Below are positions 2,708 to 58,500 of a DNA stretch of 64,000 nucleotides, piece by piece. Origin of the DNA: Escherichia coli (GTDB taxonomy: Bacteria > Pseudomonadota > Gammaproteobacteria > Enterobacterales > Enterobacteriaceae). Below the pieces are notes generated by a model. That model worked only from the letters and a program-made list of their open reading frames with translations. It searched no databases and was not told where the DNA came from. The stretch lies in NCBI RefSeq assembly GCF_046105845.1, contig NZ_CP151004.1; one strand, 5' to 3'. Made by a program: the position numbers and the translations under genes. Positions within the stretch are counted from its first letter, which is position 1; each line of letters begins with the position of its first letter.

Positions 2708-2708
2708 C

Positions 2709-2921: not shown

Positions 2922-2929
2922 TCCCTTTC

Positions 2930-2961: not shown

Positions 2962-3028
2962 AGACTTTTGCCCTCTACGCCCCGTTCATCCATGCTGATA
3001 GCATCGACATTTTGCCGAAGCGATCATC

Positions 3029-3550
3029 ATGCCAACCGTTATTACGCACGCCGCCGTTCCCCTTTGCATTGGTTTAGGGTTGGGTTCGAAAGTCATCCCT
3101 CCGCGTCTTTTATTTGCCGGAATCGTCCTGGCGATGCTGCCTGATGCCGACGTATTGTCGTTTAAATTTGGCGTTGCTTACGGCAATGTTTTTGGTCATC
3201 GCGGGTTTACCCATTCGCTGGTGTTTGCGTTTGTTGTCCCGCTGTTATGTGTGCTGATTGGACGTCGATGGTTCAGGGCTGGGCTGATTCGCTGCTGGCT
3301 GTTTTTAACCGTCTCGTTGTTATCGCACAGCTTGCTGGATTCGGTAACCACTGGCGGTAAGGGCGTTGGCTGGCTGTGGCCGTGGTCAGATGAACGCTTT
3401 TTCGCTCCCTGGCAGGTGATTAAAGTCGCGCCGTTTGCATTGTCTCGTTACACCACGCCGTACGGACATCAGGTGATTATTTCTGAATTGATGTGGGTAT
3501 GGTTGCCGGGGATGCTACTGATAGGAATGTTGTGGTGGCGCAGACGATAA
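3029..3550 (+). CDS. ybcI: Inner-membrane protein YbcI (putative metal-dependent hydrolase family)
   Basis: 173-aa hydrophobic ORF matching YbcI. Confidence 0.9.
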   Translation: MPTVITHAAVPLCIGLGLGSKVIPPRLLFAGIVLAMLPDADVLSFKFGVAYGNVFGHRGFTHSLVFAFVVPLLCVLIGRRWFRAGLIRCWLFLTVSLLSHSLLDSVTTGGKGVGWLWPWSDERFFAPWQVIKVAPFALSRYTTPYGHQVIISELMWVWLPGMLLIGMLWWRRR

Positions 3551-37865: not shown

Positions 37866-38320
37866 TGGAGTTAATGGTCGTTCATCCACATATTTTCTGG
37901 CTCAGTCTCGGCGGGTTGCTGCTGGCAGCCGAGATGCTGGGCGGAAATGGTTATTTGTTGTGGAGCGGCGTGGCAGCGGTGATTACCGGTCTGGTGGTCT
38001 GGCTGGTGCCGCTGGGTTGGGAGTGGCAAGGGGTGATGTTTGCCGTCCTGACGCTGCTCGCCGCCTGGCTGTGGTGGAAATGGTTGTCGCGGCGGGTGCG
38101 CGAACAAAAGCACAGCGACAGTCATTTAAACCAGCGCGGGCAGCAGCTTATTGGCCGACGTTTTGTGCTGGAATCTCCGCTGGTCAACGGGCGAGGTCAT
38201 ATGCGCGTCGGTGACAGTTCATGGCCTGTCAGCGCCAGCGAGGATCTCAGTGCAGGTACGCATGTTGAGGTGATTGCGATAGAAGGGATAACGCTGATTA
38301 TCCGTGCGGTCATCGCCTGA
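37862..38320 (+). CDS. ybbJ: NfeD-like inner membrane protein
   Basis: 152-aa ORF overlapping qmcA stop by 4 bp (classic SPFH-NfeD pair). Confidence 0.9.
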
Positions 38321-38480
<160 letters not shown>

Positions 38481-38504
38481 GCTATATTAACTGGCATTGG
38501 CAAA

Positions 38505-38867
38505 TTACTCGTCACTACCTTTATTCATGTTTTTTTGGTCTTCATCCGGATAATGTTTTTTTAGATATTCCAGGACGTTTTTATTGACCTTGTGTTGCGT
38601 ATACACCCACCCTTTCCAGTAATCAGGCTGGTCCAGGTAAACTTCTGGCGGAATGGTGAAATCAGAAAGCGTTAACCATTCGGCTAACAGATCGGGGTTT
38701 CGTTTCTGGATTAACTGCAACAGCATAATCAGTGACATAGCTGAGGCAGGAGCCGTACTATCACCACTCAAATATTTCCACACTGTTGACCGGTTCGAAC
38801 GAAAAAGGATCGGTAGCAATGCCCGGTCCAGATTCATTTCATTAAAAATCTTCTCAAATTCATTCAT
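38505..38867 (-). CDS. Hypothetical 120-aa protein, possible HTH-type regulator
   Basis: ORF with SD-like aggaaa 8 nt upstream of ATG at 38867; segment LLPILFRSNRSTVWKYLSGD resembles a helix-turn-helix. Divergent from the autotransporter gene across a 366-bp AT-rich region. I do not recognise the family. Confidence 0.45.
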   Translation of the reverse strand: MNEFEKIFNEMNLDRALLPILFRSNRSTVWKYLSGDSTAPASAMSLIMLLQLIQKRNPDLLAEWLTLSDFTIPPEVYLDQPDYWKGWVYTQHKVNKNVLEYLKKHYPDEDQKNMNKGSDE

Positions 38868-39233
38868 TTAAATTTTCCTGCCTGGCGTAAACCTCTTAAA
38901 AATTGAGATTTATCAAAGAAACGCATTTTAGCACACATCAGGAACCGCTTCACGTTTAGTTCAGAAACAGAATTTATTTCGCTTATCAAAACAAGTCTTT
39001 ACTCTTTTTTACATTGAAAGAGCACAAAATGATTTTCTATTTTATTTATATAAGAAACATTTTTTGTTTCTTATTGGTGGTGTTTACGCTTACACCAGAC
39101 AAAAATGCGCTTTACATCACACAAATGGCGGCGTAGATTTCGATCAAATTGCAACGCAGATTAATTCTTATAACAACGTTTTACGTTGCTTATAGAAACA
39201 AATATGTGACTTACTTTGAAAGAGAAAAAATGC

Positions 39234-42125
39234 ATGAAAACTGTAAAGCTGTCTTTACTGGCTGTCGTTGTTGCTACCGCGGTAAGTCCATCTGCGTTTG
39301 CGGGTGATACTGTTGAGGCGGCAACGACAGAATTAACGGCAATCCAGCCAGGAATGTCGCAATCGGAAATTGATCAGAAAATTGGTCGATTTTTAGAAAG
39401 GACAGGGAATAGTGCAGCCGCACAAAATTATCTGATTGCGCATGATTACCGGACAACGACACCTCAGGAAAATACAGCTGCCTCTCCCGTACAGCCCGCC
39501 AATACGCTGAACCCGATAACCAATCAAGCGCAGACCGACCGCGACAACGGGCAGGATACCGCCATTCAGGACGCACAACATGCCGCCAACTGGGCTTCAC
39601 TGAAAGCTGATGACGCGCAGCACGCCATCACGGTGGCGCAGACGGATATTGATGCCAATAAAGCCGCCATCGCCGACACCCGTAATGATGTCTCCGCAGT
39701 GCAGTCAGACGTCACCAACATAAAAGGCGATGTCGCACATGCCCAGTCAACGGCTGACCATGCCAACGCTAACGCCAACACCGCTCTGATGAACGGCGTC
39801 AAACTTTCCGGTGCTGTGGCAGAAAACAAAAACAATATCGAACAGAACCGCAGCGATATTGCTGACCAGCAGAAACTGTTGGCATCAAACGAGCAAAAAC
39901 AGATCGTCCGCGACAACGGGCAGGATACCGCCATTCAGGACGCGCAACATGCCGCCAACTGGGCTTCACTGAAAGCTGATGACGCGCAGCACGCCATCAC
40001 GGTGGCGCAGACGGATATTGATGCCAATAAAGCCGCCATCGCCGACACCCGTAATGATGTCTCCGCAGTGCAGTCAGACGTCACCAACATAAAAGGCGAT
40101 GTCGCACATGCCCAGTCAACGGCTGACCATGCCAACGCTAACGCCAACACCGCTCTGATGAACGGCGTCAAACTTTCCGGTGCTGTGGCAGAAAACAAAA
40201 ACAATATCGAACAGAACCGCAGCGATATTGCTGACCAGCAGAAACTGTTGGCATCAAACGAGCAAAAACAGATCGTCCGCGACAACGGGCAGGATACCGC
40301 CATTCAGGACGCGCAACATGCCGCCAACTGGGCTTCAATGAAAGCTGATGACGCGCAGCACGCCATTATGGTGGCGCAGACGGATATTGATGCCAATAAA
40401 GCCGCCATCGCCGACACCCGTAATGATGTCTCCGCAGTGCAGTCAGACGTCACCAACATAAAAGGCGATGTCGCACATGCCCAGTCAACGGCTGACCATG
40501 CCAACGCTAACGCCAACACCGCTCTGATGAACGGCGTCAAACTTTCCGGTGCTGTGACAGAAAACAAAAACAACATCGAACAGAACCGCAGCGATATTGC
40601 CGACCAGCAGAAACTGTTGGCATCAAACGAGCAAAAACAGATCGTCCGCGACAACGGGCAGGATACCGCCATTCAGGACGCACAACATGCCGCCAACTGG
40701 GCTTCAATGAAAGCTGATGACGCGCAGCACGCCATTATGGTGGCGCAGACGGATATTGATGCCAATAAAGCCGCCATCGCCGACACCCGTAATGATGTCT
40801 CCGCAGTGCAGTCAGACGTCACCAACATAAAAGGCGATGTCGCACATGCCCAGTCAACGGCTGACCATGCCAACGCTAACGCCAACACCGCTCTGATGAA
40901 CGGCGTCAAACTTTCCGGTGCTGTGACAGAAAACAAAAACAACATCGAACAGAACCGCAGCGATATTGCCGACCAGCAGAAACTGTTGGCATCAAACGAG
41001 CAAAAACAGATCGTCCGCGACAACGGGCAGGATACCGCCATTCAGGACGCACAACATGCCGCCAACTGGGCTTCAATGAAAGCTGATGACGCGCAGCACG
41101 CCATTATGGTGGCGCAGACGGATATTGATGCCAATAAAGCCGCCATCGCCGACACCCGTAATGATGTCTCCGCAGTGCAGTCAGACGTCACCAACATAAA
41201 AGGCGATGTCGCACATGCCCAGTCAACGGCTGACCATGCCAACGCTAACGCCAACACCGCTCTGATGAACGGCGTCAAACTTTCCGGTGCTGTGACAGAA
41301 AACAAAAATAATATCGAACAGAACCGCAGCGATATTGCTGACCAACAGCAACAACTCGACGAAACCCGGAAAACCGTTGCCGCCACCGGTGATGTACAGA
41401 CTGCCGCCCGATATCAGAGCATGATTGACGCCAGACAGACTGCTGCTGCCAATGCGCAACAGGAACAAGCGGACACCCAGCAGCAACAAATGGACGATCA
41501 GCAGAAACAAATCGACGCGACGCAAAAAACGGTTTCCGCACTTGGCGATGCCCAGACCAACGCACATTATCAAGAGATGGTTAACGCCGGACTGAGAGCA
41601 CAAAATGATGCGAATGCGCGTACTGCAGCAGAACAAAAACAAAAAATAGATACTCTGGCGACTAACCAGGCAACGCAACAGCATATCGATAGTGTGCAGT
41701 ACGGGGAACAAATTCAGCGTCTGGCGCAAGACTCAACACAAACGCATGAACAAATTGACAGCCTGACACAAGACGTAACCCAAACGCATCAGCAGTTAAG
41801 CAACACGCAAAAACGAGTAGCGGATAATAGCCAGCAGATTACTACGCTCAATAACCATTTCAGTTCGCTGAAAAACGAAGTTGAGGACAACCGTAAAGAA
41901 GCCAATGCGGGAACTGCATCAGCCATCGCTATCGCCTCACAACCACAGGTGAAAGCCGGTGACTTTATGATGATGTCAGCGGGAGCGGGAACCTTCAACG
42001 GTGAATCTGCGGTGTCTGTCGGAACATCTTTTAATGCCGGAACGCATACCGTGATTAAAGCCGGTGTCTCTGCGGATACGCAATCTGATTTCGGCGCGGG
42101 TGTCGGCGTGGGATATTCTTTCTAA
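39234..42125 (+). CDS. Trimeric autotransporter adhesin-like protein (type Vc) with coiled-coil repeat stalk and YadA-type anchor
   Basis: ORF 39216..42125; ATG at 39234 gives 963 aa. Sec signal peptide MKTVKLSLLAVVVATAVSPSAFA; long Q/A/N/D-rich helical repeat region; C-terminus EANAGTASAIAIASQPQVKAGDFMMMSAGAGTFNGESAVSVGTSFNAGTHTVIKAGVSADTQSDFGAGVGVGYSF fits the YadA-like anchor pattern (alternating small residues, glycine-rich beta strands, terminal aromatic). No recognisable YadA head motifs. Confidence 0.75.
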   Translation: MKTVKLSLLAVVVATAVSPSAFAGDTVEAATTELTAIQPGMSQSEIDQKIGRFLERTGNSAAAQNYLIAHDYRTTTPQENTAASPVQPANTLNPITNQAQTDRDNGQDTAIQDAQHAANWASLKADDAQHAITVAQTDIDANKAAIADTRNDVSAVQSDVTNIKGDVAHAQSTADHANANANTALMNGVKLSGAVAENKNNIEQNRSDIADQQKLLASNEQKQIVRDNGQDTAIQDAQHAANWASLKADDAQHAITVAQTDIDANKAAIADTRNDVSAVQSDVTNIKGDVAHAQSTADHANANANTALMNGVKLSGAVAENKNNIEQNRSDIADQQKLLASNEQKQIVRDNGQDTAIQDAQHAANWASMKADDAQHAIMVAQTDIDANKAAIADTRNDVSAVQSDVTNIKGDVAHAQSTADHANANANTALMNGVKLSGAVTENKNNIEQNRSDIADQQKLLASNEQKQIVRDNGQDTAIQDAQHAANWASMKADDAQHAIMVAQTDIDANKAAIADTRNDVSAVQSDVTNIKGDVAHAQSTADHANANANTALMNGVKLSGAVTENKNNIEQNRSDIADQQKLLASNEQKQIVRDNGQDTAIQDAQHAANWASMKADDAQHAIMVAQTDIDANKAAIADTRNDVSAVQSDVTNIKGDVAHAQSTADHANANANTALMNGVKLSGAVTENKNNIEQNRSDIADQQQQLDETRKTVAATGDVQTAARYQSMIDARQTAAANAQQEQADTQQQQMDDQQKQIDATQKTVSALGDAQTNAHYQEMVNAGLRAQNDANARTAAEQKQKIDTLATNQATQQHIDSVQYGEQIQRLAQDSTQTHEQIDSLTQDVTQTHQQLSNTQKRVADNSQQITTLNNHFSSLKNEVEDNRKEANAGTASAIAIASQPQVKAGDFMMMSAGAGTFNGESAVSVGTSFNAGTHTVIKAGVSADTQSDFGAGVGVGYSF
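39540..41343 (+). repeat. 4.9 tandem copies of a 369-bp (123-aa) near-identical in-frame repeat within the autotransporter gene
   Basis: cgcgacaacgggcaggatacc recurs at 39540, 39909, 40278, 40647 and 41016 (exact 369-bp period). Unit begins RDNGQDTAIQDAQHAANWAS... Copies 1-2 and copies 3-5 form two subtypes (LKADD/ITVAQ/AVAEN versus MKADD/IMVAQ/AVTEN). Confidence 0.92.
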
Positions 42126-42210
42126 TATTCCAATCCTCAATATAAATAAGAGCAAGGAAGCTTGCCGGGTTTCACCTCTTCATTAATTTGTACATTATTT
42201 AAGGTTAACA

Positions 42211-42633
42211 ATGATGAATAGTTCCATTAAATCGTTTTCCCTGCTGGCGGTTATATTACTGGCTGGCTGTAGTTCACCCACTTCCCGCATCGCAGATTGC
42301 CAGGCGCAGGGCGTCAGCCATGACACCTGTTATCTCGCAGAACAACAGCGTCAGACGGCTATTTTAAGTGCATCCGAGGCGCAGGCATTTAAAAATGCAG
42401 AAGCCGCACAACATGCCCAGGCGGCAAAGAAAGCCATTTATAAAGGATTTGGCATGACCTTTAGAATGAGCAGTAAGAACTTTGCTTATCTCAATGATTC
42501 ATTATGTGCAATTGATGAAGACAATAAAGATGCCACTGTTTATCAGTCAGGTCTTTATAACGTCATTGTTTATCACCACACGGGAAAAGTCGCCTTAATG
42601 AAGGAAGGTCAGTTTGTGGGTTATTTAAAATGA
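42211..42633 (+). CDS. Putative lipoprotein (140 aa)
   Basis: Signal peptide with lipobox LLAGC, Ser at +2; 85 bp downstream of and co-directional with the autotransporter gene. Confidence 0.6.
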   Translation: MMNSSIKSFSLLAVILLAGCSSPTSRIADCQAQGVSHDTCYLAEQQRQTAILSASEAQAFKNAEAAQHAQAAKKAIYKGFGMTFRMSSKNFAYLNDSLCAIDEDNKDATVYQSGLYNVIVYHHTGKVALMKEGQFVGYLK

Positions 42634-42833
42634 AGGAGCAAAGGAAAATCCCCCTGACGCATATTATGATTATCGGTGCGTTTATTTTTGCCTTCTTGCA
42701 AGTGGTGTTATTAGCCTCCCTGGTTCACGCTGTGAATGTTAACAATGAAATCCAGGAAGGCTTATTTCAATCGGGGCGCATAATGGTAGAAAGTTTGCAG
42801 CATATTCTTTCGGTGCAAACGGGGATTAACTGA
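42630..42833 (+). CDS. Putative small single-pass membrane protein (67 aa)
   Basis: Start overlaps the lipoprotein stop (ATGA); hydrophobic segment IMIIGAFIFAFLQVVLLASLV; stop lies 3 bp from the convergent cueR stop. Confidence 0.4.
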   Translation: MKEQRKIPLTHIMIIGAFIFAFLQVVLLASLVHAVNVNNEIQEGLFQSGRIMVESLQHILSVQTGIN

Positions 42834-42836
42834 TTT

Positions 42837-43244
42837 TCACCCCGCCCGATGATGACAGCAGCCGGAGAGATTTTCGATAATCGGGCAGTCGGCGCTGTCA
42901 TCGCCAGGGCAGGCATTCGCCAGCGCCAACAGCTGGTTGCGCATGGATTGCAGTTCTTCGATATGTCGCTCGATCTCCGCCACTTTCTCCAGGGTGCGAC
43001 GTTTGACGTCGGCACTGTGACGCTGCGGATCGTTAAACAGATTCACCAGCTCGCCGCTCTCTTCCAGGTTAAAGCCCACCTGGCGTGCCTGGCGCAGTAA
43101 GGTCAGTTCGTTGAGATGCTGCTGCGTGTAAGTACGATAACCGTTTTCGCTGCGCATCGGCGGCGTCACCAGCCCCTTCTCTTCATAGAAGCGGATTGCT
43201 TTGCTGGTCAGGCCGGTAATTTTTGCTACATCGCTAATGTTCAT
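42837..43244 (-). CDS. cueR: MerR-family copper-responsive regulator
   Basis: 135-aa [32 protein letters not shown]... with C-terminal metal-binding CPGDDSADC...CCHH; recognised CueR. Confidence 0.95.
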
Positions 43245-44416
43245 CGTTCGCGCAACGCCTCCTGTGCTTTATTAAAGGGTTTCAACAGATAATCCAGCAC
43301 GCTTTTTTTGCCGGTGCGGATATCGACCGTCGCCACCATGCCGGGAAATATCGGAAACTGCTGTTTACTTTTGTTTTCCAGATGGTTGCTGAAAGTGCGA
43401 ATGTACACCCGATAGTAATAAACATCGCGCCGCACTTCATCCTGCACGGTGTCTGGTGATATCACCGCCACTTCTCCCGGCAGGCCGCCGTAGATGGAGT
43501 AATCGTAGGCGGTTATTTTCACCAGCGATTTTTGCCCCGGATGGATAAACGCCACATCGCGCGGGGAGATTTTTGCCTCGATCAGCAGTTGCTCATCCAG
43601 CGGCACGATGGTCATCAGTTTACCACCGGGGGCAATGACCCCGCCAACCGTGGTGACGTCAATGTCCTGAACAATGCCTCGCACCGGCGCGGTAAAGTTG
43701 AGCCTGGTGAGGGAGTCTTCCCGTCCACGGATCACCGAACGCTGGGTTTCCACTTCCGCATTGGCTTTCGCTAACTCTTCGCGCGCCTGAACGTAATATT
43801 GCGTGCGCACGTCGCTAAGTTTGTTTTCCAGTTCATTGGCCTGGCGTTGCAGGCGCAGCACTTCAACGCTGCTCGCCGCCCCCTGTTTTACCAGCGGCTG
43901 GGTCATCGCCAGTTCGCGGTTGACCAGGCTAATCCCCTGCGTCAGCCCGGTGGTGGCTTTGTTCAGCCCATCGCGGCGAGTGTTGTACAACGCCGTTTCC
44001 GACTCGATAAGTTCGGGGAATTTATTCAGTTCGTCAGGGAAGACCAGCGGTTTATTGCTCACTTCCGCCCGCAGCCGCGCCGAGGTTGCCAGCGCCGCGT
44101 ACAGCCGCGACATTGCTTCCTGGACGTCGGATTCCGTTTTGGTGCGGTTAAGCTGCGCCAGCGGCTGGCCCTGTTCAACAATATCGCCAACCTTGACGTC
44201 GAGATGATACAGAATTCCGCCTTCCAGCGACTGCACCACCTGTTCGCGCCCGGAGGGTTCTACCGTGCCGCTGCCGGTGGTGACTTCATCAAGCTGGAAG
44301 TACCACGCCCAGCCGAGAAAACAGAGCAGCATCACAGCGGTAACGCGTACCGCCAGCGCCGAACGCGGCAAGCGGGGTTCAGTCAGGCCACGGTTGTATT
44401 GCAGTTGTCCGTTCAT
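43241..44416 (-). CDS. Type I secretion periplasmic adaptor (HlyD family membrane fusion protein)
   Basis: 391-aa ORF with N-terminal TM anchor, long coiled-coil region and C-terminal beta domain typical of HlyD/LapC; its stop overlaps the cueR start (ATGA). Confidence 0.88.
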
Positions 44417-46575
44417 GCGGCAGACCCCTTATTCTTCTCCTGCAACACCACCCGTCGCGCCGTGGGTTCGCTCTGTTCACGCAAAATGGCCTCTTTCGCG
44501 CCATCCATCACAATCCGCCCCTGATCCATCACGATGATCCTGTCCACCAGTTGCAGCATCGCCGTGCGGTGAGTAGCGATGACCAGCGTGCGATGCCCAA
44601 TCCACTGTTTCAGTTGTTCGATTAAATACGCTTCCGCCATTTCGTCCAGCGAGGCGCTGGGTTCATCGAGCAGCACGATATTGGGTTGAGAGATGAGTAG
44701 CCGCGCCAGCAGCAGCGTTTGCCGCTGACCACCAGAGAGGCCAAATCCCCCTTCCTGAATCATGTAGTTGAGGCCGTTTTTCTGCTTCTGCACAAAGGGC
44801 AGCGCGCCACTTAGCGTTAACGCGCGTTCGATATCTTCATCGCTGGCCTCCGGCATCCCCATGGTGAGGTTTTCCCGCAGCGAACCAAAAAACAGTCGCC
44901 CGGTCTGGCTCAGCAGCCCCATGTCGCGGCGCAGATCTGCCGGATCAAGTTGCCCGATGCTGATGTTATCCAGTAGCACCTGCCCCTGCTGGGCGATACG
45001 CATTCCGGCGAGCATTTGCAGTAGCGTTGATTTACCCGCGCCGTTGCGCCCGAGAATGGCGATTTTCTCTCCGGCCTGAATGTTGAGTTTGCCAATCGCC
45101 ACATCGGCAATCTTCTCTTCTTCGTCGTAATAAAATACCGCGTTGCTGAACTGATAATTGCCGTGCAGCACCGCTTTATGCACCAGTTTGCCGTGTTCCG
45201 GCTGATCCACCGGGCGCTTCATCAGTTCATCAAGGCCATTACGCGCTACTTTCGCCTGCTGCCAGCGCGAGAGCACGCCGGATATCTGCGACAGCGGCGC
45301 GATGGTGCGCGAAGCCAGGATCGTCGTCCCGACCAGCGCGCCGGTGGTCATGTCACCGTTCATTACCATAAAGCAGCCCACCAACAGCACCACCACGTAG
45401 ACGATGGACTGCACTTCCTGGGTCCAGGTGAGCAGTAGCCCGGTGAGAAAACGTTGCTTCATACTGATGGACGAGGCCACGTCGTTGGTGTGGTTCCACT
45501 GATTCTGAAAACGCTGTTCGGCGCGCAGCAGCTTAATATCTTCAATCGACTGCACGGCTTCCACCAGCGTAGCGTTACGCACCGCCGACTCGCGCATCCC
45601 TTCGTTCGCCAGCCGCGCCAGCGGGCGTTGTACCAGCAGGCCGGGGATCACCAATAACGGCAGCGCCAGCAAAACCACCAGCACCAGCCAGCCGCCAATC
45701 ATCCACAAAATAAAGACAAACAGCAGGAAGAACGGCAGATCCGCCACTGCACCAATAGTGGTGGAGGTGATCAGCTCCCGAACCGATTCCAGTTCGCGGA
45801 TCTGCGAGATAAACGATCCGGTGGATTTCGATCGCACGTTGTTTTTAAGCCGTAGCGCATGACCAAAAACGCGATCCGAAATACGCAGATCCGCCCGCTT
45901 GCCGATCACATCCGAAAGATGTGTGCGCACCATGCGCATACAGAACTCAAACAGGATCGCCATCATCACCCCGGCGAACAGCACCCATAGCGTCGGGTAC
46001 GATTGCGCCGGAACGACGCGGTCGTAAACCTGCATCGAGAAAATCATCGCCGCAAGCGCCAGCACGTTCGCCACCAGTGACGCCAGCATAATATCGCCAT
46101 AGCGCCGCCAGTCTTTTAGCGAGAGATTCCAGAACCAGTTCGCCTGATACGGGCGAATATAGTCGTCTACCCGCGCGTCAGGAATAGCGCTGAGCGGGCG
46201 CAACAGCGCCAGTTCGACGATGTTATCTTCAATATCCGTAACGTTAAGCGTGGTTTCCAGCCCTTCGTCACCGCTGAACTGAACGCTGATATTGTCGTGA
46301 TTATCGCGGCGGGTGATCACGCCAATCTGCTGATTATCAAATACCGCGATCAGCGGCAGACGCCACGGGTTAAGCGAGTCGGCGGAGAACTCCACCAACC
46401 GTAACCCCATTCCCAACTGCCGCGCCATATCGGTGAGCAACTCTTCCCGCTTGCTGTCGCGCTCCCAGTTGACGGTTGCGCGCACGTTCTCCTGAGAAAA
46501 ATCGAGGCGGTAATAACGCGCCACGGCGATCATCGCCTCCAGCCAGGCTTCCACGGACTGGGCATTTTTTTTCAT
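44413..46575 (-). CDS. Type I secretion ABC transporter (ATPase/permease) with N-terminal C39-like extension
   Basis: 720-aa ORF: ~150-aa N-terminal extension, 6-TM region, then Walker A GRNGAGKST, signature LSGGQRQ, Walker B LLDEPSASLD; its stop overlaps the adaptor start (ATGA). Confidence 0.9.
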   Translation of the reverse strand: MKKNAQSVEAWLEAMIAVARYYRLDFSQENVRATVNWERDSKREELLTDMARQLGMGLRLVEFSADSLNPWRLPLIAVFDNQQIGVITRRDNHDNISVQFSGDEGLETTLNVTDIEDNIVELALLRPLSAIPDARVDDYIRPYQANWFWNLSLKDWRRYGDIMLASLVANVLALAAMIFSMQVYDRVVPAQSYPTLWVLFAGVMMAILFEFCMRMVRTHLSDVIGKRADLRISDRVFGHALRLKNNVRSKSTGSFISQIRELESVRELITSTTIGAVADLPFFLLFVFILWMIGGWLVLVVLLALPLLVIPGLLVQRPLARLANEGMRESAVRNATLVEAVQSIEDIKLLRAEQRFQNQWNHTNDVASSISMKQRFLTGLLLTWTQEVQSIVYVVVLLVGCFMVMNGDMTTGALVGTTILASRTIAPLSQISGVLSRWQQAKVARNGLDELMKRPVDQPEHGKLVHKAVLHGNYQFSNAVFYYDEEEKIADVAIGKLNIQAGEKIAILGRNGAGKSTLLQMLAGMRIAQQGQVLLDNISIGQLDPADLRRDMGLLSQTGRLFFGSLRENLTMGMPEASDEDIERALTLSGALPFVQKQKNGLNYMIQEGGFGLSGGQRQTLLLARLLISQPNIVLLDEPSASLDEMAEAYLIEQLKQWIGHRTLVIATHRTAMLQLVDRIIVMDQGRIVMDGAKEAILREQSEPTARRVVLQEKNKGSAA

Positions 46576-46578
46576 TAT

Positions 46579-49500
46579 CTACACCACCATCAACTGATGA
46601 TTCGCCAGCAAAGTGGCGAGGTCGGTGTGCACGCCCGTCAGCGTGACCACGTTAGTTGTCGCAAAAGTGCCGCCCGTGCCGTCGCGGTCGATCTGTACGA
46701 TGGTGTCGCTGCCGCTCTGGGTGACTTTGACAAAATCACCGATGTTTCCGGCCTGCGCATCCAGCGTTGCCACGCCGTTGACGTAGCTGGCTTTACCGTT
46801 GCCGGTGTAGCCGCTGCCCTGTAACAACTCGCGGATATCAATGCGATCGGTGTCGGCGGTGCCTTCCCATGTCCCTACCGTAAAGCCATTCACCACGTCT
46901 GAGCCGTTGCCGCCGGTCGCGTCGCTGGCGTTGAGCAGTTTATAGAGCAAGGTGTCGTGGCCGCCGTTGCCGATGTTGAGCGTGTCGTTACCGCCGCGCC
47001 CTTCCAGTTGGTTATCGCCGCTGCTGCCGGTCAGAGTGTCGTTAAAATTCGAGCCGGATATCCCTTCGATATTGGTAAATGTCGAGGTGTTAAAGCCGGT
47101 GGCCTGCGCGGCGGTGCTGCTTAAGTTCGCGGTCACGCCCACCGTCGAGAGGCGGAAATCAACCACGTCCATCCCGCCATTCGCCAGCCACGTTCCGGTG
47201 CCGGAGCTGTACACCCAACCGCCGGAGCCGTCGTAAGTGTCGGTGCCTGCGGTGGCAAAGAAGGTGTCGTTATAGCCGGTGCCGACGAACTTGCCATTGT
47301 TGCTCGCGGTGCCTGCTTCGGCGCTGAGGTCGTAAGCGTGGGTGGCATCGGTGGCCTGTAAGCCGCCCCAGCTGGTGTTGACCGTCTGGTCGATATTGCT
47401 GGCGGTGGTGCCGGTGGATTTGATCAGCACCGCGTTGTAGGTTTCTCCGGCATTCAGCCCGTAGAAGTTGACCAGCGCCGAGGTGTCGTTAACCCCCATA
47501 CCCGACTGCGGGTTGATGATTTGCGTGGCGACCAGCACTCCCGCCGAGTTGTACAGTTTTACGGTATTGCCGTAATAGACGTTAATGCCGTTAGGATCGG
47601 TGATGCGCAGGTGCAGCGAAGTGCCGTAGCTCACCGTGTTGGTGTTGCGAATAAGATAGACGCTGCCCGACTGTTTGGTCACCAGCACATCCACCGCGCC
47701 GTCCCAGTCGTAGTCCATTGCCGCCACGCCGCTGGTGGTACCGCTCTGGCTACCGCCGAGGGCCGATTGTGTCCAGTTGCTGGCATTGCTGACGTTGGTA
47801 TAAAGATACGACTGCCCGGTCTGGGCGATACGGGCGATATCCATCAGGCCGTCATGGTTCCAGTCCACCGCCAGGCTAAACTGGCTGGCGTAGGTGGTTG
47901 CCGTTGCGCCCACCGCCACCGGGCTACCCAGTACACCGTTGGTGTTGAATAACAGCGAGCCGTAGTTAGCTCTTCCCTGGCTGGCGGGCAGGAAGAGATC
48001 CATATCGCCGTCGCCATCGAAATCGGCCCAGGTCATGGAAACGCTGCTGCTCATAGCGCCACTACCCGCCCCGCTCAGGAAGGTATTGGTGGTGTTCTGC
48101 CCCCAGACAAACGTCCCATTCCCCTGGTTGATGAGCGAAGACAGTGTGTAATAGTTATTCAGGTTATAGGTGTGCTGAACCAGGTCGATCCTGCCGTCAT
48201 TATTCAGATCGACGCCAGAACCTTCGTTGAGCGAAAGATACCCCGTCACCGCCCCGCCCACCGTGGCGCTACCGCCGCTGTTCGACGTGGTGGAGGTGCC
48301 TACCAGCGTGCCTGCGTTGTTCCACAAGAAGGTGTTAGAGTCCGGCCCGCCCGCGTCGCCAATCCAGAAGTCGAGATAGCCGTCGCCCTCTTTATCAAAT
48401 GCCACAATCGAGCCGTACCACGTCAGGGTGCCGACGGTGACCTGAATAGCGCTGGAAAAGGTGCCGTCGCCGTTATTGGTAAAGCCGTTGATATAGCCTG
48501 TACCGTAGTCATCACGGGTGATAAACAGATCGCCCGTGCCGTTACGGTCGTAATCGGCGATGGAGCTGGTGGCGTAGTTGTTGCCGCTCTGATACAGCGT
48601 CAGCGCGGTCTTCGACCAGGTGAGTGGGTCAGTCGATTGCATTACCTGCTGGTTTGCCAGCACCGTCCACATCCCGTGCGAGTCGAGGCCGTAGGTCAAT
48701 CCCCAGGCGGTGGTTTTGCTGACGGTGGTCCAGGTCGGTGTGTAATCAATCGCCGCATTAACCGTCACCGTGCCGTTGCTAATATTGGCGTTATTGCCGT
48801 TACCCGCCGAACTTTTTACCTGCGCAGTAACGGTATAGGCGGTCGCGGAAACTGTCAGCGCATCGGTATCCGGCAACTGTACATACCAGGTGTTGTGCGC
48901 CGGATCGACCACTACCGCGCCGCCCGGTTCAGAGGTGTAGGTTTTGCCGTTGATCACCACTTCAACATACTGCCCACTGGCGAGTGCCGCCGTGATTACC
49001 CCGCTGATAATCGGCGTGGTATCGCGCGTGGTCTGGCTGGTAATTTGCGCCAGCGTGGTCGGAATAGAGGTATCGACCGTCAGGACAAAATCACTGGAGG
49101 CGGTGATATTCCCCGCCAGATCCACCACTCGCGCACTGTAGGTGTAGGCACCGCTCACCAGCCCGCTGTCGCTGTAGGTCCAGTTCAGTGCGCCTACCAT
49201 CGTTACCGCGCCTAACAGCAGGCCGTTACGGTAGAGGTAAACCACTTCACCGCTGGCAAGCGGGCCGGAGAGCACGCCGTTCAGCAACGGCGTAGTGTCG
49301 TCGGTGGCCTGCGAACTGCTTAATGTCCCCTGCCGCTGCCCGACGTCATCAGTGTACGACACAATGGTCGGCGTCGCGGTGGGGTTAATCGTATCGACCA
49401 CCACCGTTTTCGACACCACCGGACCGGTGTTCCCCGCCAGATCCAGCACCCGCACCTGATAAACATAGCTGCCGTCGGTCAGCGTGCGGCTGTCAGTGTA

Positions 49501-52500
49501 GGTCCACTGCGTGCCGTTGGTGGTGAGCGTGATCCAGGTCGCGCCACCATCGAGGCTAATCTGCGCCACTTCGCCACTGGCAAGCCCCGCCCCCAGTGAA
49601 CCCGTCAGCGTGAGCGTGGTATCGCTGGTGATAAAGTCAGTTGCCGAACTCCCCGTGTCGGTGCTGATACTGGCGATGGTGAGTACCTGCGCCGGGTTAA
49701 CGGTATCGATCAGCGCCGACTGGCTGCCGGTTGCGCCAACGTTGCCCGCAAGATCGACTACCCGCACCTGCCAGGTGGTGGTGCCGTTGGTGAGCGTGCG
49801 CCCGTCAACGTAACTCCAGTTAAGGCCGTCTGCGGCGACGGTCACGTTCACCCAGGTTGCGCCGTTGTCGGTACTGATTTGCGCGAACTCATTAGCGCCG
49901 AGCGCCGCGCCCAGCACGCCGCGCACGGTAAGCGAGGTGTCGCTGGTAATAAAATCGCTACTGCTGGCTCCGGTGTCATCGCTGATACCGGTAATGGTGA
50001 TACTTTTCGCCGCTTCCGGGCTGGTGGTGTCGACCACCACATTTTGCGTTGCGGTCTGCCCGACATTCCCCGCCAGATCCACCACCCGCACCGTGTAGTT
50101 CCAGGTGCCGTCGGTCAGTGTGCGACCATCGGCATAGCTCCAGCTGGTGCCGATAACGGTTAAGGTGGTCCAGGTAACACCGCCGTCGAGGCTGATTTGC
50201 GCCCGTTCATCGGCGGCAAGCGCCGCGCCGAGCGTGCCGCGCACGGTCAGCGTGGTGTCGCGGGTGACAAAATCGCTGCTGCTTAACCCGGTGTCATCGC
50301 TGATGCCCGCAATGGCGATGGTTTTGCTCGCCAGCGGCGCGGTGGTGTCCACAGTGACTATCTGGCTGGCGGTCGCGCCGATATTTCCGGCGGTGTCGAT
50401 CACCCGCACCTGATAGTTGTAGTTGCCGTCGCTCAGCGTGCGCCCGTCAAGATATGTCCAGGTTAAGCCGCTTACCGAAAGATTCTGCCAGGTGGTGCCG
50501 CCGTCGATGCTGATTTGCGCGAACTCACCGGCAGAAAGCGCCGCGCCCAGCGTGCCGCTTACCGCAAGCGTCGTGTCGCTGGTGACAAAATCGTTAGTGA
50601 TCAGGCCCGTATCGGTAGTGATCGCGCTGATGGCGATGGTTTTCACCGCGGGATCTGGCGCGATGGTGTCGATCACCACATTCTGGCTGTCGGTGGCACC
50701 GACGTTGCCCGCAGCGTCAATCACCCGCACCTGATAGAGATAGTTGCCATCGGTCAGCGTGCGGCTGTCGTTATAACGCCAGGTCGTGCCGGTAACGGTG
50801 AGCGTGGTCCAGGTTACGCCGCCGTCGATACTGATTTGTGCCGTCTCGTTACTGGCAAGCGCGGCGGTGAGCGAGCCGTTGACCACCACCGGACTGACGC
50901 TGGTGATAAAGTCGCTGGCGCTAAGCCCAGTGTCGGCTTGCAGGGAATCGATATTAATACCCATCGCCGGGACGCTGAGATCGACAGTAATGGTGTGATT
51001 GCTGCTGCCGGTGTTGCCAATGGCGTTGCTCACCGAGGCATTAATCACATAGGCATTGCCGTCCGTCAGCGCGGTGACATCGGCGCTGCCGAGGGTGTAG
51101 CTCCAGCTACCGCCGGTCTGTACCGTGGTGGTGTAGGTTTTGCCGTTTAAGGTCAGGGTCAGCGTCTGCCCGACGGGTGCGGTGGTGGTGCCGCTGATCA
51201 CCAGCGACGAGCCGTGTTCCGCCGCGTTCACCACATCATCGCCCGCAAAGGTGTTGATGGTGACGGTAGGCACATCGCCGTTCAACGTCACGCCACGGCT
51301 GGCGCTGCCGGGGTTTCCGGCCTGATCGGCGACCGACGCGCTGATGGTGTAGCTGCCGTCGCTTAATCCGGCAAACTGCTGCGCCGGAATAAACACCGAC
51401 CAGCTTCCGCCGCTGCCGACCGTTGCAGTCCAGCTCTGACCGTTAAAGGTGACGGTCACCGTCTGGCCCACTTCAGCGGTGGTGGTGCCGCTGATGGTTT
51501 GCCCAGCGAGCTGTTCGGCGTTGTTGATAATATCGTCACCCGCCACCGTGGCGATGGTGACCGTGGGCGCAACGGTATCGACGGTCAGGGCGTGCGTGGT
51601 TTGACCGGGGTTACCGGCGCGATCGTTCACGCTGGCGGTAATGGTCTGCGCGCCCTGCCCGAGTGCGGCCAGATCCGCCGCAGGCACGTTAAGCGCCCAG
51701 GTGCCATTGGCGGCCACCGTGGCAGTGTAAGTTTTGCCGCCAAAGGTGACAGTGACCGTCTGCCCCACTTCCGCGCTGGTCGAGCCGTTAAGGGTTAACG
51801 GCTGCTGTTGTTCGGCGGCGTTGAGTCGGTCGTCCGTTGAAACCGTGTTTATGCTGATAATCGGCGCGGTGAGATCCACCGCAACACTGCGCGAGGCCGT
51901 GGCGCTGTTTCCGGCGCTGTCCTGGGCGGAGGCGCTAACCGTGTAGCTGGTGCCATCCGCCAGTGCCGCGACGTCTGCCGCCGGCACGTTCACGCTCCAG
52001 CTCCCGTTGCTCTGAATGGTGGCGCTGTAGCCTTTGCCGTTAAGCAACACGGTCACTACTGTACCTGCGGCAAAGTTCGTTCCGGTGCCGATCAGGGTCA
52101 GCGCACTGCCCGCTTCGGCGGCGTTAATAATATTATCGCCGCTGATGGTGCTGACCGAGAGCGACACTGCCGCCGTGTTCACCTGCACGTTGTGCGTCTG
52201 CGTGCTGCTGTTGCCTGCGCTATCGGTGATAGTGGCGCTGATGGTCACCGTGCCGTCTGCAAGGCCGGAAATCACGCTGGCAGGCACGCCGACGCTCCAG
52301 TTGCCGCTGGCATCGGTGCTGGTGACATACTGCTGCCCGGCGATGGTCACCACCAGGCGGTCGCCCGCCACTGCGCCCGTGGCGGTGCCGCTGATAATCT
52401 GCGCCTGAGTGTGTTCGACGTTGTTAATCACATCATCGCCCGCCACGGTGTTAAAACTGATCACCGGCGCAGTGGTATCGACGGTCACGCCTTTGCTGGC

Positions 52501-55500
52501 GCTGCCAGGGTTACCCGCCAAATCGCTGACCGTGGCGGTCAGGGTGTAGCCGTTATTGGCAAGTGCGGTTAAGTCGCTGGCGGGCAGCGTTAAACTCCAG
52601 CTGCCGTCTGCCTGCACCGTGGTCTGGTAGTTAGTGCCGTTAAGCGTGACGGTCAGCGTCTGCCCCGTCTCCGCCGTGCTGGTGCCGGATACCGTCACGC
52701 CCGCCGCCGCTTCGCTGGCATTGATGATGTTATCGCTGGCAATGGTGTTGATGGTCACCGTTGGCGCGGCGCTATCGACGCTGTATTCATGCGTTGCCGT
52801 GGCGCTGTTGCCGTTGACGTTAGTCACCCGCACCTGGGCGCTGGCATCGCCGTCACGCAGGGCCGCCATATCCGCCGCCGGAACGGTGGTGCTCCAGCTA
52901 CCGTTTGCCGCCACCGTGGTGGTGTAGGTTTTACCGCCAAAAGTAATGGTAACGGTTTGCCCCGCTTCGACGCCGGACGTGCTGCCGGAGAGCGTTAGCG
53001 CCGCGCCTTTTTCGGCGGCGTTAATCACATCATCGCTGGTAATGCTGTTCATGCTGATGGCGACGGTAGTGAGATCAACAGTCAGCGGATGGGTAATGCT
53101 GGTTTGCGTTCCGGCACTGTTCGCGCCGCTAACGGTAATGTTCAGCGTTCCCGCAGGCCAGTTGCTGACATCCGCCGCCGGAACGCCGACGCTCCAGCTG
53201 CCGTTTGCCAGCACCGTGGCGGCGTAAGTTTGGTTATTAATCACCACCGTCAACGCCGTACCTGCGGCAAAACCGGAACTGCTGCCAGTAATCACCTGCG
53301 CCTGGGCGTGTTCGATAATATTCACCACATCATCGCCCGCGACGGTATCCACCCGCAGGCCGGGTAGACTGGCATCGATGGTGATATCGCGCGTGCCGCT
53401 ACCGGTGTTGCCAACGGCGTTGGTCACCAAGGCATTAACCGTTAACTCACCGTTACCCAGCGCCTGCCAGTCGGCGGCAGGTACGCTCACATTCCAACTT
53501 AAATCAGCCTGGACCGTGGCGGTGTAAGTTTTACCGCCCAGTTCAACGGTGACGGTGCTGCCCGCCGCCGCACCGGTTACCTGGCCGCTGATGGTTTGCG
53601 CACTGCCTGCTTCAGCGGCGTTGATAATATCGTCCGTCGCCACCGGATTAATGGTGACGCCCGGTAGCGCGGTATTGACCTGCACGTTATGGCTGGCGGT
53701 GCTGCTGTTACCCTGAGCATTTGTGACGCTCGCCGTCACGCTGTAGGTGGCTTCGCCCAGCGCACTGACCGCCGAGGCGGGCACGGTTACGCTCCAGTTG
53801 CCGGAGGCGTCGGTAGTGGCGCTGTAGTTTTGTCCGTTCAGCGTAACGGTGATCGCCGTACCCGCAGGCTGATCGCTGGTGCCGGAAAGCGTCAGATCAG
53901 ATCCTTTTTCCGTCGCGTTGATCACATCATCGCCCGCGATGGTGTTGATGCTAATCACTGGCGCGCTGAGGCTGACGGTCACGGTGCGGCTGGCGTCATC
54001 GCTGTTACCCGCCCGATCGCTGACGCTGGCGGTGATGGTCTGTGCGCCGCTACCCAGTGCCGTAACATCCGCCGCTGGAACGCCAACGCTCCAGTTGCCG
54101 GAGGCATCCAGGGTGGTGGTGTAGGTTTTGCCGTTGAGCACAACGCTCACCACATCGCCCGCTTCCCCGCCCGTGCTGGTGCCGGAGATCACCAGCGCCT
54201 GCGCATGTTCGGCATCGTTGATAATGTCATCGCCCGCCACAGTGTTAATGGTGAGAACCGGCGCGGTGGTGTCTACCGCCAGATTATGGCTGGCGCTGCC
54301 GGGGTTGCCCGCTTTGTCGTTGACCGTGGCGCTGACGGTGTAATTGCTTGCGCTCAGCGCGCCTAAGGCTGAAGGGGGAACGCTGACGCTCCAGCTACCG
54401 TCTGCCTGCACATTACCGCTGTAGGTTGCGCCGTTAAGGGTGACGGTGACCGTCTGCCCGGTTTCGGCGGTGCTGGTGCCGCTGATGGTGAGCGGGCTTC
54501 CCGCCTCCGTGGCGTTAAGAATATCGTCGCTGGCAATGGTGTTAATGGTGAGCGTCGGCGCGCTGGCGTCAACGCTGTACGCATGGGTCGCCGAGGCGCT
54601 GTTACCGCTCGCGCTGCTAACGCTGGCCTGCACGTTCGCCGCGCCGTCTGGCAGAGTTGCCAGATCTGCCGCCGGAACGTTCACACTCCAGCTTCCGTTG
54701 GCGGCGACGCTTGCGGTGTAGGTTTTACCGCCAAAGATGACGGTAACGGTTTGCCCGCTTTCAATCCCGCTGGTGCTGCCGGAAAGGGTCAGACCAGTGC
54801 CTTTTTCGGCGGCGTTAATTACGTCGTCGCTGGCAACGGTGTTGATGCTGATTGCCACCGCCGTTAAATCGACGGTGAACGGATGGCTGACGCTGACCGG
54901 ATTTCCGGCGCTGCTCTGGCCTGCCACGTCAACGGTTAACGCCCCCGCAGGCCATGCGCTGACGTTTGTCGCCGGAATGCCGACGCTCCAGCTCCCGTCT
55001 GCCTGTACCGTGGCGGAATAAGCCGTGCCGTTAATCGTGATCGTCAATGGCACGCCTGCATTCAGGCCGCTACTGCCGCCAGTGATCACCAGCGCCTGCC
55101 CGTGTTCAATGCTGTTGACGATATCATCGCCCGCTACCGTATCCACGCGCAGCCCTGGCAGGTTAGCGTCAATGGTGATATCCCGCGTACCGCTGCCCGT
55201 ATTGCCATTCGCGTTGGTGACCGAAGCGTTAATGGTCAAATCGCCATTGCCCAACGCCTGGAGATCGGCTGCCGGAACGCTGATACTCCAGCTTAAGTTG
55301 CCCTGTACCGTGGTGGTGTAAGTGTTGCCGCCCAGCGTGACGGTAACCGTATCGCCAGCGGCGGCACGAGTGACCACCCCGCTGATGGTTTGATCGGCCC
55401 CGGCTTCGGCGGCGTTGATAATATCATCGCCCGCCACGGTGTTGATGGTAACGCCCGGCAGGCCGCTATCGATCAGTAAATTCGCCTGGCTGCTGGCGGT

Positions 55501-58500
55501 GTTACCCGCCGCACTGGTGGCACTGGCGCTGACGGTATAGTTGGCCTGACCTAGAGCCGCCAGATCGCTCACCGGCACGGTTAAGGTCCAGTTGCCCGCC
55601 GCGTCGGTGGTGGCGCTGTAGTTATGACCGTTGAGCGTGACGGTGACCTGCGCGCCCGTCGCCAGCCCCGTACTGCTACCGCTAATGGTCAACGGCTGGC
55701 CTTTTTCATCGGCGTTCAGGACGTTATCGCCGCTGATGGCGTTAAAGGTAATTGACGGCAGGCCAGTATTGACCGTCACCTGATGCGTGGCGCTGCCGCT
55801 GTTTCCGGCGGCATCGGTGACGCTGGCGTTAATGGTCACCGTGCCGTTCGCCAGCGCCGAGACGACGCTTGCCGGAACGCCGACGCTCCAGTTACCGCTG
55901 GCATCCAGCACGGTGGTGAAGGTATTTGTGCCGATAGTCACCGTCACGGTGCTACCGGTTGCCGCACCCGTGGCGGAGCCGCTGATAATCTGCGCCTGGG
56001 CGTGTTCCGTCGCGTTGATCACATCATCGCCTGCCACCGTGTTGATGGTGACGACCGGAACGGAAGTATCCACCGTCAGGTTGTGATTAACCGAGGCCGG
56101 GTTTCCGGCTTTGTCGCTCACCGCCGCATTCACGGTGTAGTTGCTGGCGGTCAGGGCGCTTAAGTCGGCTGGCGGTACGCTGACGCTCCAGCTACCGTCC
56201 GTTTGAACCGTGCCAGTATAGTTTTCGCCATTGAGGGTGACGGTCACTGTCTGCCCCGCTTCCGCCGTGCTGCTGCCAGTGATAGTCAGCGCAGCACCCG
56301 CTTCGGCGGCGTTAAGAATGTCGTCGCCCGCAATGGTGTTAATGGTCACCGTTGGCGCGGTAGCATCGACGCTGTAAGCGTGGGTAGTGGTGGCGCTGTT
56401 GCCGTTAACATTGCTGACGTTGGCCTGCGCGCTGGCATCGCCATCACGCAGGGCCGCCATATCTGCCGCCGGAACCGAGGTGCTCCAGGAACCATTCGCC
56501 GCGACGCTTGCAGTGTAGGTTTTGCCGCCAAAGGTGACGGTGACCGTTTGCCCGGCCTCCACACCAGAAGTGCTGCCAGAGAGCGTTAACGCCGCGCCTT
56601 TTTCGGCAGCGTTAATCACGTCATCGGCAGTAATGGCGTTGATGCTGACCGCCACCGCAGTGAGATCGACAGTCACCGGATGCGTAACGCTGACCGGATT
56701 TCCGGCTGTGGTGCTACCGCTCGCCGTAATCGTGACCGTCCCCGCAGGCCAGGCGCTGACATCTGCCGCCGGAACGCCGACGCTCCATGAGCCATCCGCC
56801 AGTACCGCCGCAACATAGGTTTGCCCGTTAATGGTCAGCGTGACGTTACTGCCCGTCGCCAGACCGGAACTGCTGCCGGTAATCATCAGCGCCTGTCCGT
56901 GCTCGATAATATTGACCACATCATCGCCAGCGACAGTATCGACCCGCAGACCGGGCAGATTCGCGTCGATGGTGATTTCACGCGTGCCGTTACCGGTATT
57001 ACCTACGCTGTTCGTTACCGAAGCCGAAATGGTCAGCTCGCCGTTGCCCAGCGCCTGTAAAGCGGCTGCCGGAACATTAATACTCCAGCTTAAATTCGCC
57101 TGCACCGTGGCAGTGTAAGTCGCCCCGCCGAGCGTGACGGTTACCGTGTCGCCCGCTGCCGCGCCCGTCACTTGCCCGCTGATGCTCTGGCCCGCGCCCG
57201 CTTCGGCAGCGTTAATAATATCGTCGCTCGCGACAACGTTAATGGTGACGCCCGGCAGCGCGGTATTAACCTGCACGTTATGGCTGGCGGAACCGCTGTT
57301 GCCATCAGAGTCAGTAGCGGCGGCGGTCACCGTGTAAGTGGCTTCACCGAGGGCGCTCACCCGTGACGCCGGAACGGTCACGCTCCAGTTACCGGATGCA
57401 TCGGCAGTGGTGGTGTAATTTTGCCCGTTGAGCGTAACGGTTATCTGCGTGCCCGCAGGCTGGTCGCTGGTGCCGGAAATCGCCAGATCCGCGCCTTTCT
57501 CCGTGGCGTTGATGATGTCATCGACGGCAATGGTGTTAATGCTAAGTACCGGAGCGCCGAGCGCCACGCTGACACTGTGCGAGGCCGTGCCGCTGTTGCC
57601 TGCGGAGTCGGTGACCGTGGCGGTAATGGTCACATCCCCCTGCGCCAGTGCGGAAATCACGCTGGCAGGCACACCGATGCTCCAGTTGCCGTTGGCGTCC
57701 AGCACGGTGGTATAGGTAGTCGTGCCAATGGTCACGGAAACCGTGTTACCGGTCGTCGCGCCCGTTGCCGAGCCGCTGATAATCTGCGCCTGAGCATGTT
57801 CCGTGGCGTTGATGATGTCATCGCCCGCCACCGTGTTAATGGTGACAACCGGAGCGGCAAGGTCCACCGTCAGATTATGTGTTGCTGAAGCCGGATTTCC
57901 GGCTTTGTCGCTGACCGCCGCGCTCACCGTATAGGGACTGACAGTGAGGTTGGCTAAATCGCCAGTTGGTACGCTGACGCTCCAGTTCCCGTCTGCCTGC
58001 ACGTTGCCGCTGTAATTGACGCCGTTTAGCGTCACAGTCACCGTCTGCCCGGCTTCCGCCGTGGTGGTGCCGCTGATGGTCAGCGCCGATCCCGCTTCGG
58101 CGGCGTTAAGAATATCGTCGCTGGCGATGGTGTTGATGGTAACGGATGGCGCGGTGGCATCGACGCTGTAAGCATGCGTTGCCTGGGCGCTGTTACCTGC
58201 GACGTTGCTGACGCTGGCCTGGACGTTTGCTGCGCCGTCAGGCAAGGTTGCGAGATCGGCGACTGGGATCGTTAGCCCCCAGGTGCCGCCCGCGGCAACC
58301 GTGGTGGTGTAGCTTTTACCACCGAAGATAACGGTGATGGTCTGCCCCGCTTCCACGCCGGAGGTGGTGCCGGAAAGCTGCAAATCGCTGCCTTTTTCGG
58401 CGGCATTAATTACATCGTCAGTGGAAAGGGTGTTGATGGTGATCGCCACAGTAGCGAGATCGACCGTGACCGGATGAGTAATGCTGGTTGTGGTTCCGGC

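Follow-up and report, generated by a model that had tools for sequence, protein, structure and literature searches.

Among described systems, the closest to the locus examined here is O-island 28 (OI-28) of enterohemorrhagic Escherichia coli (EHEC) O157:H7, a type I secretion system (T1SS)/RTX adhesin system that is required for early adherence (Niu et al. 2025, PMC12758282). OI-28 has been defined as five genes (tolC28, rtxA28, rtxB28, hlyB28, and hlyD28), is driven by an RstA- and Ca2+-activated promoter upstream of tolC28, and is conventionally presented as an O-island absent from K-12; the paper on its regulation mentions neither cueR, copper, an ATGA overlap, nor an internal promoter (PMC12758282). 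For K-12, a ybaS-ybaT-cueR operon was predicted in a 2006 comparative paper. Here, a 64,000-nucleotide (nt) stretch of E. coli DNA (NCBI RefSeq assembly GCF_046105845.1, contig NZ_CP151004.1; "the window") was analyzed, in which the minus-strand gene for a T1SS periplasmic adaptor runs directly into cueR, with the stop codon of the former and the start codon of the latter sharing the tetranucleotide ATGA. We propose that this junction is probably a fusion scar that is fixed across the genus Escherichia, not an evolved copper-adhesin device, and that cueR lives on a promoter and a Shine-Dalgarno (SD) sequence borrowed from the adaptor gene.

The ORF list of the window contains four consecutive minus-strand open reading frames (ORFs): a giant adhesin gene followed by ORFs of 720, 391, and 135 amino acids (aa). 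The 391-aa ORF (43241..44416) closes with CGA TGA, and the 135-aa ORF (42837..43244) opens with ATG, the two having 4 bp in common. At this boundary the minus strand is GCACAGGAGGCGTTGCGCGAACGATGAACATTAGC, reading CGC GAA CGA TGA AC, and the overlap reported in the first-pass annotation is seen directly at 43241-43244. The 135-aa protein is CueR, the Cu(I)-responsive MerR-family regulator, with full-length matches that exceed the curated equivalog cutoffs of NF007590 (308 bits versus 244) and TIGR02044 (206.6 versus 147.4), and the gene is annotated as cueR in E. coli AST215. The 391-aa protein is an HlyD-family T1SS adaptor (TIGR01843, 327.7 bits; cutoff, 208.65), a homologue of hlyD28/Z0635 whose gene adjoins a T1SS ATP-binding cassette (ABC) gene and a substrate gene. 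The former (44413..46575, minus strand; hlyB28/Z0634 homologue) encodes a 720-aa LssB-type T1SS ABC permease/ATPase (TIGR03375, 837.5 bits; cutoff, 693.1).

A 4-bp overlap is in itself commonplace. The ABC/adaptor pair shares an ATGA overlap too (44413-44416), at least seven same-strand ORF pairs in the window have a 4-bp stop/start overlap, and ATGA occurs 455 times in the window against 459 expected, which is no enrichment. The oddity is that functionally unrelated genes, a copper sensor and a secretion gene, are paired. An assembly or annotation artifact was ruled out, since the same junction is annotated in complete genomes and was found in 959 of them. The ATGA is identical in six other sampled Escherichia sequences with an intact adaptor gene, in which the junction is conserved base for base, and it is also unchanged in the K-12-type, cryptic-clade, decayed-island, and Escherichia albertii sequences described below. 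Over a 2.1-kb region, the window is 100% identical to AST215 and 96.6% identical to O157:H7. The gene order in AST215 is copA <> glsA-ybaT-[337 bp]-tolC-siiEA-ABC-HlyD-cueR, and the window locus is the OI-28/siiEA T1SS adhesin island of EHEC.

Of 5,426 complete E. coli genomes, 959 (18%) have the full adaptor-cueR junction. In E. coli without the island, similarity to the window does not begin at cueR; in 24 of 24 sampled records it begins 92 to 95 nt upstream of the cueR ATG, inside the adaptor gene (query position 1362-1365, corresponding to window 43339-43336). In alignment, K-12-type E. coli carry the last ∼98 bp of the adaptor gene (homologous to 43241..43339, minus strand) at ∼90% identity, with a 1-bp deletion in an A-run, and the NCBI Prokaryotic Genome Annotation Pipeline (PGAP) labels this remnant an "incomplete, frameshifted" pseudogene. 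The remnant encodes the adaptor C terminus that is conserved in the adaptors of other genera, and the conserved length and C terminus of homologues elsewhere argue that it is a genuine adaptor 3' end. A cryptic-clade Escherichia (L011) has the same junction as K-12-type genomes, while Escherichia whittamii and Escherichia sp. E1V33 have the intact adaptor-cueR junction. E. albertii has kept no more than the final 21 nt of the adaptor gene (ACAGGAGGCGTTGCGCGAACG) in front of the ATGA, and its left breakpoint differs. Together, the K-12-type remnants and the E. albertii remnant indicate that the fusion predates the split of E. coli and E. albertii. What looks like an intermediate between the intact and the K-12-type states occurs in strain SCPM-O-B-8794, labeled E. 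coli (L012, 3175-5000), where ABC gene fragments and a frameshifted adaptor gene are left of a decayed island, ybaT lies ∼2 kb upstream, and the cueR fusion and the promoter region described below are kept.

Extra conservation at synonymous sites was looked for in the 3'-terminal 98 bp of the adaptor gene; among six sequences, this segment held 5 variable sites against ∼10 per 98-bp bin, a difference for which the power was too low. In strain 99-3311 (L093, 1430-3085), the SD of cueR is CATGAGG instead of CAGGAGG, which makes the adaptor Q386H, and a 1,224-bp hypothetical ORF is inserted directly after the cueR stop.

The arrangement outside Escherichia was examined next to these remnants. A CueR operator lies 70 nt or less upstream of cueR in 46 of 80 species-representative loci, which corresponds to 46 of the 75 non-Escherichia Enterobacteriaceae loci; the group takes in Salmonella and many Citrobacter, Enterobacter, Klebsiella, and Kluyvera. 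In the inspected loci of this copA-adjacent group, copA starts ∼108 bp from cueR on the opposite strand, and the SD of cueR is GGGGGAA, at a normal distance of 5 to 6 nt from the ATG. When representatives were aligned with Escherichia, homology ended exactly at the cueR ATG. On the copA side, Escherichia keeps the CueR operator and is homologous up to GGTCAAG; between GGTCAAG and the cueR ATG lies only the block of glsA, ybaT, and the island. The divergent copA-cueR promoter region that usually stands upstream of cueR is thus missing in front of the window cueR. The remaining 29 non-Escherichia loci have other sequence upstream of cueR, many with a canonical TATAAT, and copA lies kilobases off or beyond the 5 kb examined. 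The copA-cueR intergenic site is a rearrangement hot spot across the Enterobacteriaceae.

The adaptor gene was followed in the same way. Most of 120 listed homologues (from Enterobacter, Pseudocitrobacter, Citrobacter, and others) are 391 aa long, and nearly all end in KPFNKA.EALRER. Their genes stop with TAA or TAG, not TGA, indicating that the Escherichia adaptor gene lost its own stop codon and borrows the TGA of the cueR ATGA while its native length is kept. The T1SS island occupies different chromosomal sites in other genera. In Pseudocitrobacter and Enterobacter, the adaptor gene has unrelated convergent genes behind it (cho, EAL proteins) and never cueR. Adjacency of the adaptor gene and cueR was found only in Escherichia.

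To place cueR transcription, we turned to transcription start sites (TSSs) mapped by Cappable-seq in EDL933, an island-bearing O157:H7 strain grown to exponential or stationary phase in LB, M9, acid, or salt (PMC10469882). In all eight conditions, a gene-specific primary TSS at 604687 was assigned to EDL933_RS02800, with relative read scores of 4.2 to 9.0 and without stress regulation (PMC10469882, Table S5 and internal TSS table). EDL933_RS02800 is cueR (604847..605254; coordinates verified), and 604687, 160 nt upstream of its ATG, falls within the adaptor gene. EDL933 and the window are identical for 50 nt upstream and 24 nt downstream of this site, so the primary cueR TSS of the window can be placed at 43404 (minus strand) by transfer. 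A candidate σ70 promoter (43412..43440, minus strand) precedes it, with a −10-like TACTAT (43417-43412) at −13 to −8 relative to the TSS and, separated by a 17-nt spacer, a −35-like ATGAAG (43440-43435); the assignment of these hexamers to the TSS is made from their position and sequence and is tentative. TACTAT overlaps codons for VYYYR, a motif conserved in the adaptor, and recurs in the adaptor gene of an Enterobacter; the promoter may be a preexisting cryptic promoter of the adaptor gene. A consensus scan of 42500-46700 found no minus-strand σ70 match, a result that is uninformative because the mapped promoter itself is too weak for the filter.

For the island operon, a tolC28 TSS (579751) was missing from exponential LB and exponential acid and detected in the other six conditions; the adhesin, ABC, and adaptor genes have no gene-specific TSS listed, and weak internal TSSs are recorded within them (PMC10469882). 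Transferred by homology, further weak TSSs in the adaptor gene fall at window ∼43609/43610 and ∼44197 (minus strand; EDL933 604481/2 and 603894), one inside cueR falls at ∼43135 (minus strand; EDL933 604956), and an antisense TSS downstream of cueR, from a convergent small ORF, falls at ∼42738 (plus strand; EDL933 605353).

The first-pass annotation had made cueR the last gene of the adhesin-T1SS transcription unit. Taken to its conclusion, cueR would be a true terminal cistron, with most CueR made from the long RstA- and Ca2+-controlled transcript by reinitiation at the ATGA and with adhesin production and copper sensing coregulated. The genes do lie on the same strand, with a 4-bp overlap and no intergenic space. 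A terminator scan gave nine minus-strand hits against 4.7 ± 2.8 expected from shuffled sequences, which is no significant excess, and the hits are weak stems inside coding sequence; with no gap and no terminator excess, read-through from the operon promoter is physically possible. Moreover, RstA affects the five island genes in concert, as would fit a single long transcript extending to the adaptor gene (PMC12758282), and the copA-adjacent 5' region and SD of most relatives are gone. That much of the proposal holds. It falls short in that cueR has a start site of its own, detected in EDL933 also in the two conditions without a detected tolC28 TSS, and in that the adjacency is confined to Escherichia. 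A dedicated cueR promoter in the 3' end of the adaptor gene was one of the two features that the annotation had named as speaking against operon-driven expression, the other being the absence of a read-through transcript, and the identity of the window to EDL933 around the TSS predicts it here.

Translation of cueR also bears on this question. An AGGAGG SD (43258..43263, minus strand) made of the adaptor codons (A)QEA stands 13 nt before the cueR ATG. This spacing is above optimal, and reinitiation by ribosomes that finish the adaptor could help. Across all Escherichia sequences that were compared, E. albertii included, the 21 nt preceding the ATG show 100% conservation, and AGGAGG lies within them; thus, the SD of cueR in all examined Escherichia, K-12 included, consists of adaptor codons. 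In the leader of the transcript from −160, the in-frame starts are ATG at −95, GTG at −92 and −56, and TTG at −41 and −11. An upstream ORF that could couple translation was sought among them and rejected: none has an SD save the trivial 4-codon TTG at −11, which abuts the AGGAGG of cueR. With no SD-preceded start in the adaptor frame of this transcript, cueR must initiate from AGGAGG, and no coupling is expected. Folding of the junction RNA (−56 to +40) gave no structure beyond that of shuffled sequences (z = +0.74 for the window and −0.51 for K-12) and no SD-masking hairpin. K-12-type E. coli, with its frameshifted 98-bp remnant, and E. albertii, with its 21-bp remnant, have the same SD and ATGA and no adaptor ORF. 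CueR is functional in K-12. Coupling thus appears not to be essential for cueR, and termination-reinitiation at the AUGA of a read-through transcript is plausible as an optional extra.

CueR activity is set by Cu(I) binding, not by abundance, which also counts against cueR as an operon-driven terminal cistron, as does the result that no CueR box was found in the island. We consider it unlikely that most CueR is made in this way. A still more doubtful variant is that in island-bearing E. coli, EHEC O157:H7 among them, RstA- and Ca2+-induced read-through from the adhesin operon raises CueR by reinitiation during early gut adherence and that, conversely, loss of the ybaT terminator rewired K-12-type cueR to the acid- and copper-responsive ybaST transcript. 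A regulatory link between copper and the adhesin is possible and has neither support nor proof at present, and the TSS data show that no such link is needed.

How K-12-type strains came to differ was traced at the other end of the island. Island strain AST215 has a strong intrinsic terminator directly after ybaT (L089, 7857-7879), with a 9-bp stem, six G-C pairs, a T-rich tail, and a folding energy of −16.6 kcal/mol (z = −5.3). In the K-12 type, the left end of the deletion falls within the 3' arm of this terminator (L002, 3971-4000), and no hairpin is left (z = +0.8). A single deletion therefore took both the −160 promoter and the terminator arm and opened read-through from ybaT, consistent with the predicted K-12 operon; ybaT transcription probably runs into cueR. 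A K-12 TSS assigned to cueR at 512925, with a 292-nt leader (Kim 2012), maps inside ybaT, and the same sequence stands upstream of the intact terminator in an island strain. A σ54 chromatin immunoprecipitation sequencing site also lies inside ybaT in sense orientation (MG1655 512537, L002 3537 region; 679 bp upstream of cueR in K-12; PMC4591121); in island strains this site would face the tolC28 operon.

These data also bear on the possibility that the island was inserted recently beside an unchanged cueR, in which case the K-12 ybaT-cueR arrangement would be ancestral and the overlap a coincidence of the insertion endpoint. The customary description of OI-28 as an O-island absent from K-12 (PMC12758282), its presence in only 18% of complete E. 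coli genomes, and the different chromosomal sites of the island in other genera, which indicate mobility on evolutionary time scales, all favor it. Deletion accounts for the frameshifted adaptor 3' end in K-12-type genomes, for the shorter E. albertii remnant with its other breakpoint, and for the terminator hairpin that is intact in island strains and cut in K-12; insertion accounts for none of these, and a recent insertion is contradicted and very improbable. The first-pass suggestion that the island had simply inserted upstream of cueR was right about origin and understated the outcome, as the fusion reaches the start codon, extends across Escherichia, and makes K-12 a deletion derivative.

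The least credible reading, on a par with recent insertion, is that CueR, encoded at the operon end, directly regulates the island in response to copper: a regulator beside a gene cluster often signals regulation, but the mapped island regulator is RstA (PMC12758282), and a scan of the window, the AST215 locus (L089), and the K-12-type locus (L002) for CueR operators (CCTTCC-N6-7-GGAAGG, two or fewer mismatches) found only the copA operator, with none in the ybaT-tolC intergenic region or at promoter-like positions of the window, the scattered two-mismatch hits in the island lying in coding regions and no 19-bp-spacer CueR promoter standing upstream of the operon.

The fusion-scar explanation leads to the following working model. 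In an ancestor of Escherichia, glsA-ybaT and the T1SS island (tolC-adhesin-ABC-adaptor) would have been placed between the copA promoter with its CueR operator and cueR. Everything in front of the cueR ATG would have been replaced by this block, down to the SD that copA-adjacent relatives have, and so would the adaptor's own stop, the cueR ATGA now giving the adaptor its TGA. We infer that insertion came first and was followed by a deletion that fused both ORFs and was tolerated since both stayed intact. From then on, cueR would have used AGGAGG from the adaptor codons QEA and a weak constitutive promoter in the adaptor 3' end, with its TSS at −160. Transcripts of the RstA/Ca2+-controlled operon may read through, and ribosomes ending the adaptor could reinitiate at the overlapping AUG, presumably without physiological relevance. 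In most E. coli, including K-12, the island would later have been lost by a deletion that began ∼28 nt past the ybaT stop and reached to within 98 bp of the adaptor stop. The −160 promoter would have been lost with it, as would the 3' arm of the terminator after ybaT, attaching cueR to ybaT transcription.

Several points weigh against this model. The candidate promoter hexamers match only 7 of 12 consensus positions, and the TSS in the window would follow from EDL933 by sequence identity. The EDL933 TSS is weak (score of 4 to 9) and has a second classification, as an internal TSS of the adaptor gene; operon read-through could contribute substantially to cueR when induced. Even in K-12, the mapping of the cueR TSS is inconsistent, at −19 in RegulonDB (via PMC10469882) and at −292 in Kim 2012. 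Finally, an ancestral divergon of copA and cueR rests on the majority state only (46 of 75 non-Escherichia loci).

The last ∼160 to 250 bp of the adaptor gene hold the cueR promoter and ribosome-binding site. Deletions of OI-28 or hlyD28, as in EHEC virulence work, therefore risk changed cueR expression, and copper side effects are worth checking. If read-through did matter, copper defense would be tied to colonization, E. coli lineages would differ systematically in cueR expression, and cueR expression could be altered in the OI-28 and hlyD28 deletion mutants of virulence work. The textbook K-12 cueR leader is a fossil of a T1SS adaptor gene, and the K-12 "ybaST-cueR operon" appears to have been made by a terminator-clipping deletion; as far as the literature was searched, no earlier description of either was found. 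The locus is a clean example of a core regulator that survives on a promoter and an SD borrowed from horizontally acquired coding sequence. No new mechanism is revealed; all components are of known kinds, and the regulation is ordinary.

The remaining features of the window lie on either side of the junction. The giant BapA/SiiE-like adhesin gene (siiEA; rtxA28/rtxB28 region of OI-28) was identified from its open frame and the AST215 annotation; its 3' 17.4 kb occupy 46579..64000 on the minus strand, and it runs off the window. An adhesin pseudogene was suspected from a frameshift flag in AST215 and rejected: correctly joined to the AST215 5' end (L089, 9647-13002), the window adhesin forms one intact ORF of 20,778 nt (6,925 codons). 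The AST215 copy itself is 23 nt shorter and flagged as frameshifted, and with two RTX genes described in O157:H7, disruption of the adhesin gene seems to be a frequent difference between strains.

The interval between cueR and ybbJ holds a second variable block (window 38300-42836). In the ORF list it contains a 120-aa ORF (38505..38867, minus strand), a 969-aa coiled-coil ORF (39216..42125, plus strand), a 140-aa ORF (42211..42633, plus strand), and a 67-aa ORF (42630..42833, plus strand) whose end is 3 nt away from the cueR stop. Where the 969-aa ORF lies, PGAP places shorter ORFs named "YadA-like" or "YadA family autotransporter adhesin." This YadA-like ORF contains 4.9 tandem copies of a 369-bp unit, 98% identical (39531-41352), and, as a by-product, a ladder of 122-aa ORFs appears on the reverse strand of the repeats. 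CUVET17-1418, which lacks the T1SS island, has the block too; K-12 does not.

The junction can be set against four known arrangements. OI-28 of O157:H7 is the same locus, with the same gene order, the same ybaT and cueR flanks, and ABC and adaptor DNA at the identity given above; it differs in that its adhesin is described as two RTX genes, whereas the window part is one open frame. The K-12 ybaS(glsA)-ybaT-cueR locus shares with the window the same cueR, the 21-nt SD-containing leader, and the ATGA, but there the island is deleted down to the 98-bp fossil, with loss of the −160 promoter and truncation of the ybaT terminator. In BapA/SiiE-type T1SS operons of other Enterobacteriaceae, a giant Big-domain adhesin likewise precedes the ABC and 391-aa adaptor genes, which overlap by ATGA; in those operons the adaptor gene is last, ends in TAA or TAG (with a hairpin after one of them), and carries no fused regulator. 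Lastly, the copA-cueR divergon of Salmonella, Citrobacter, Enterobacter, Klebsiella, and others has an orthologous CueR (82 to 91% identity) and ybbJ downstream. There, cueR sits ∼13 nt from the CueR operator/copA promoter with its own GGGGGAA SD, whereas in Escherichia the operator region has remained on the copA side and cueR is instead fused to the gene of a T1SS adaptor.

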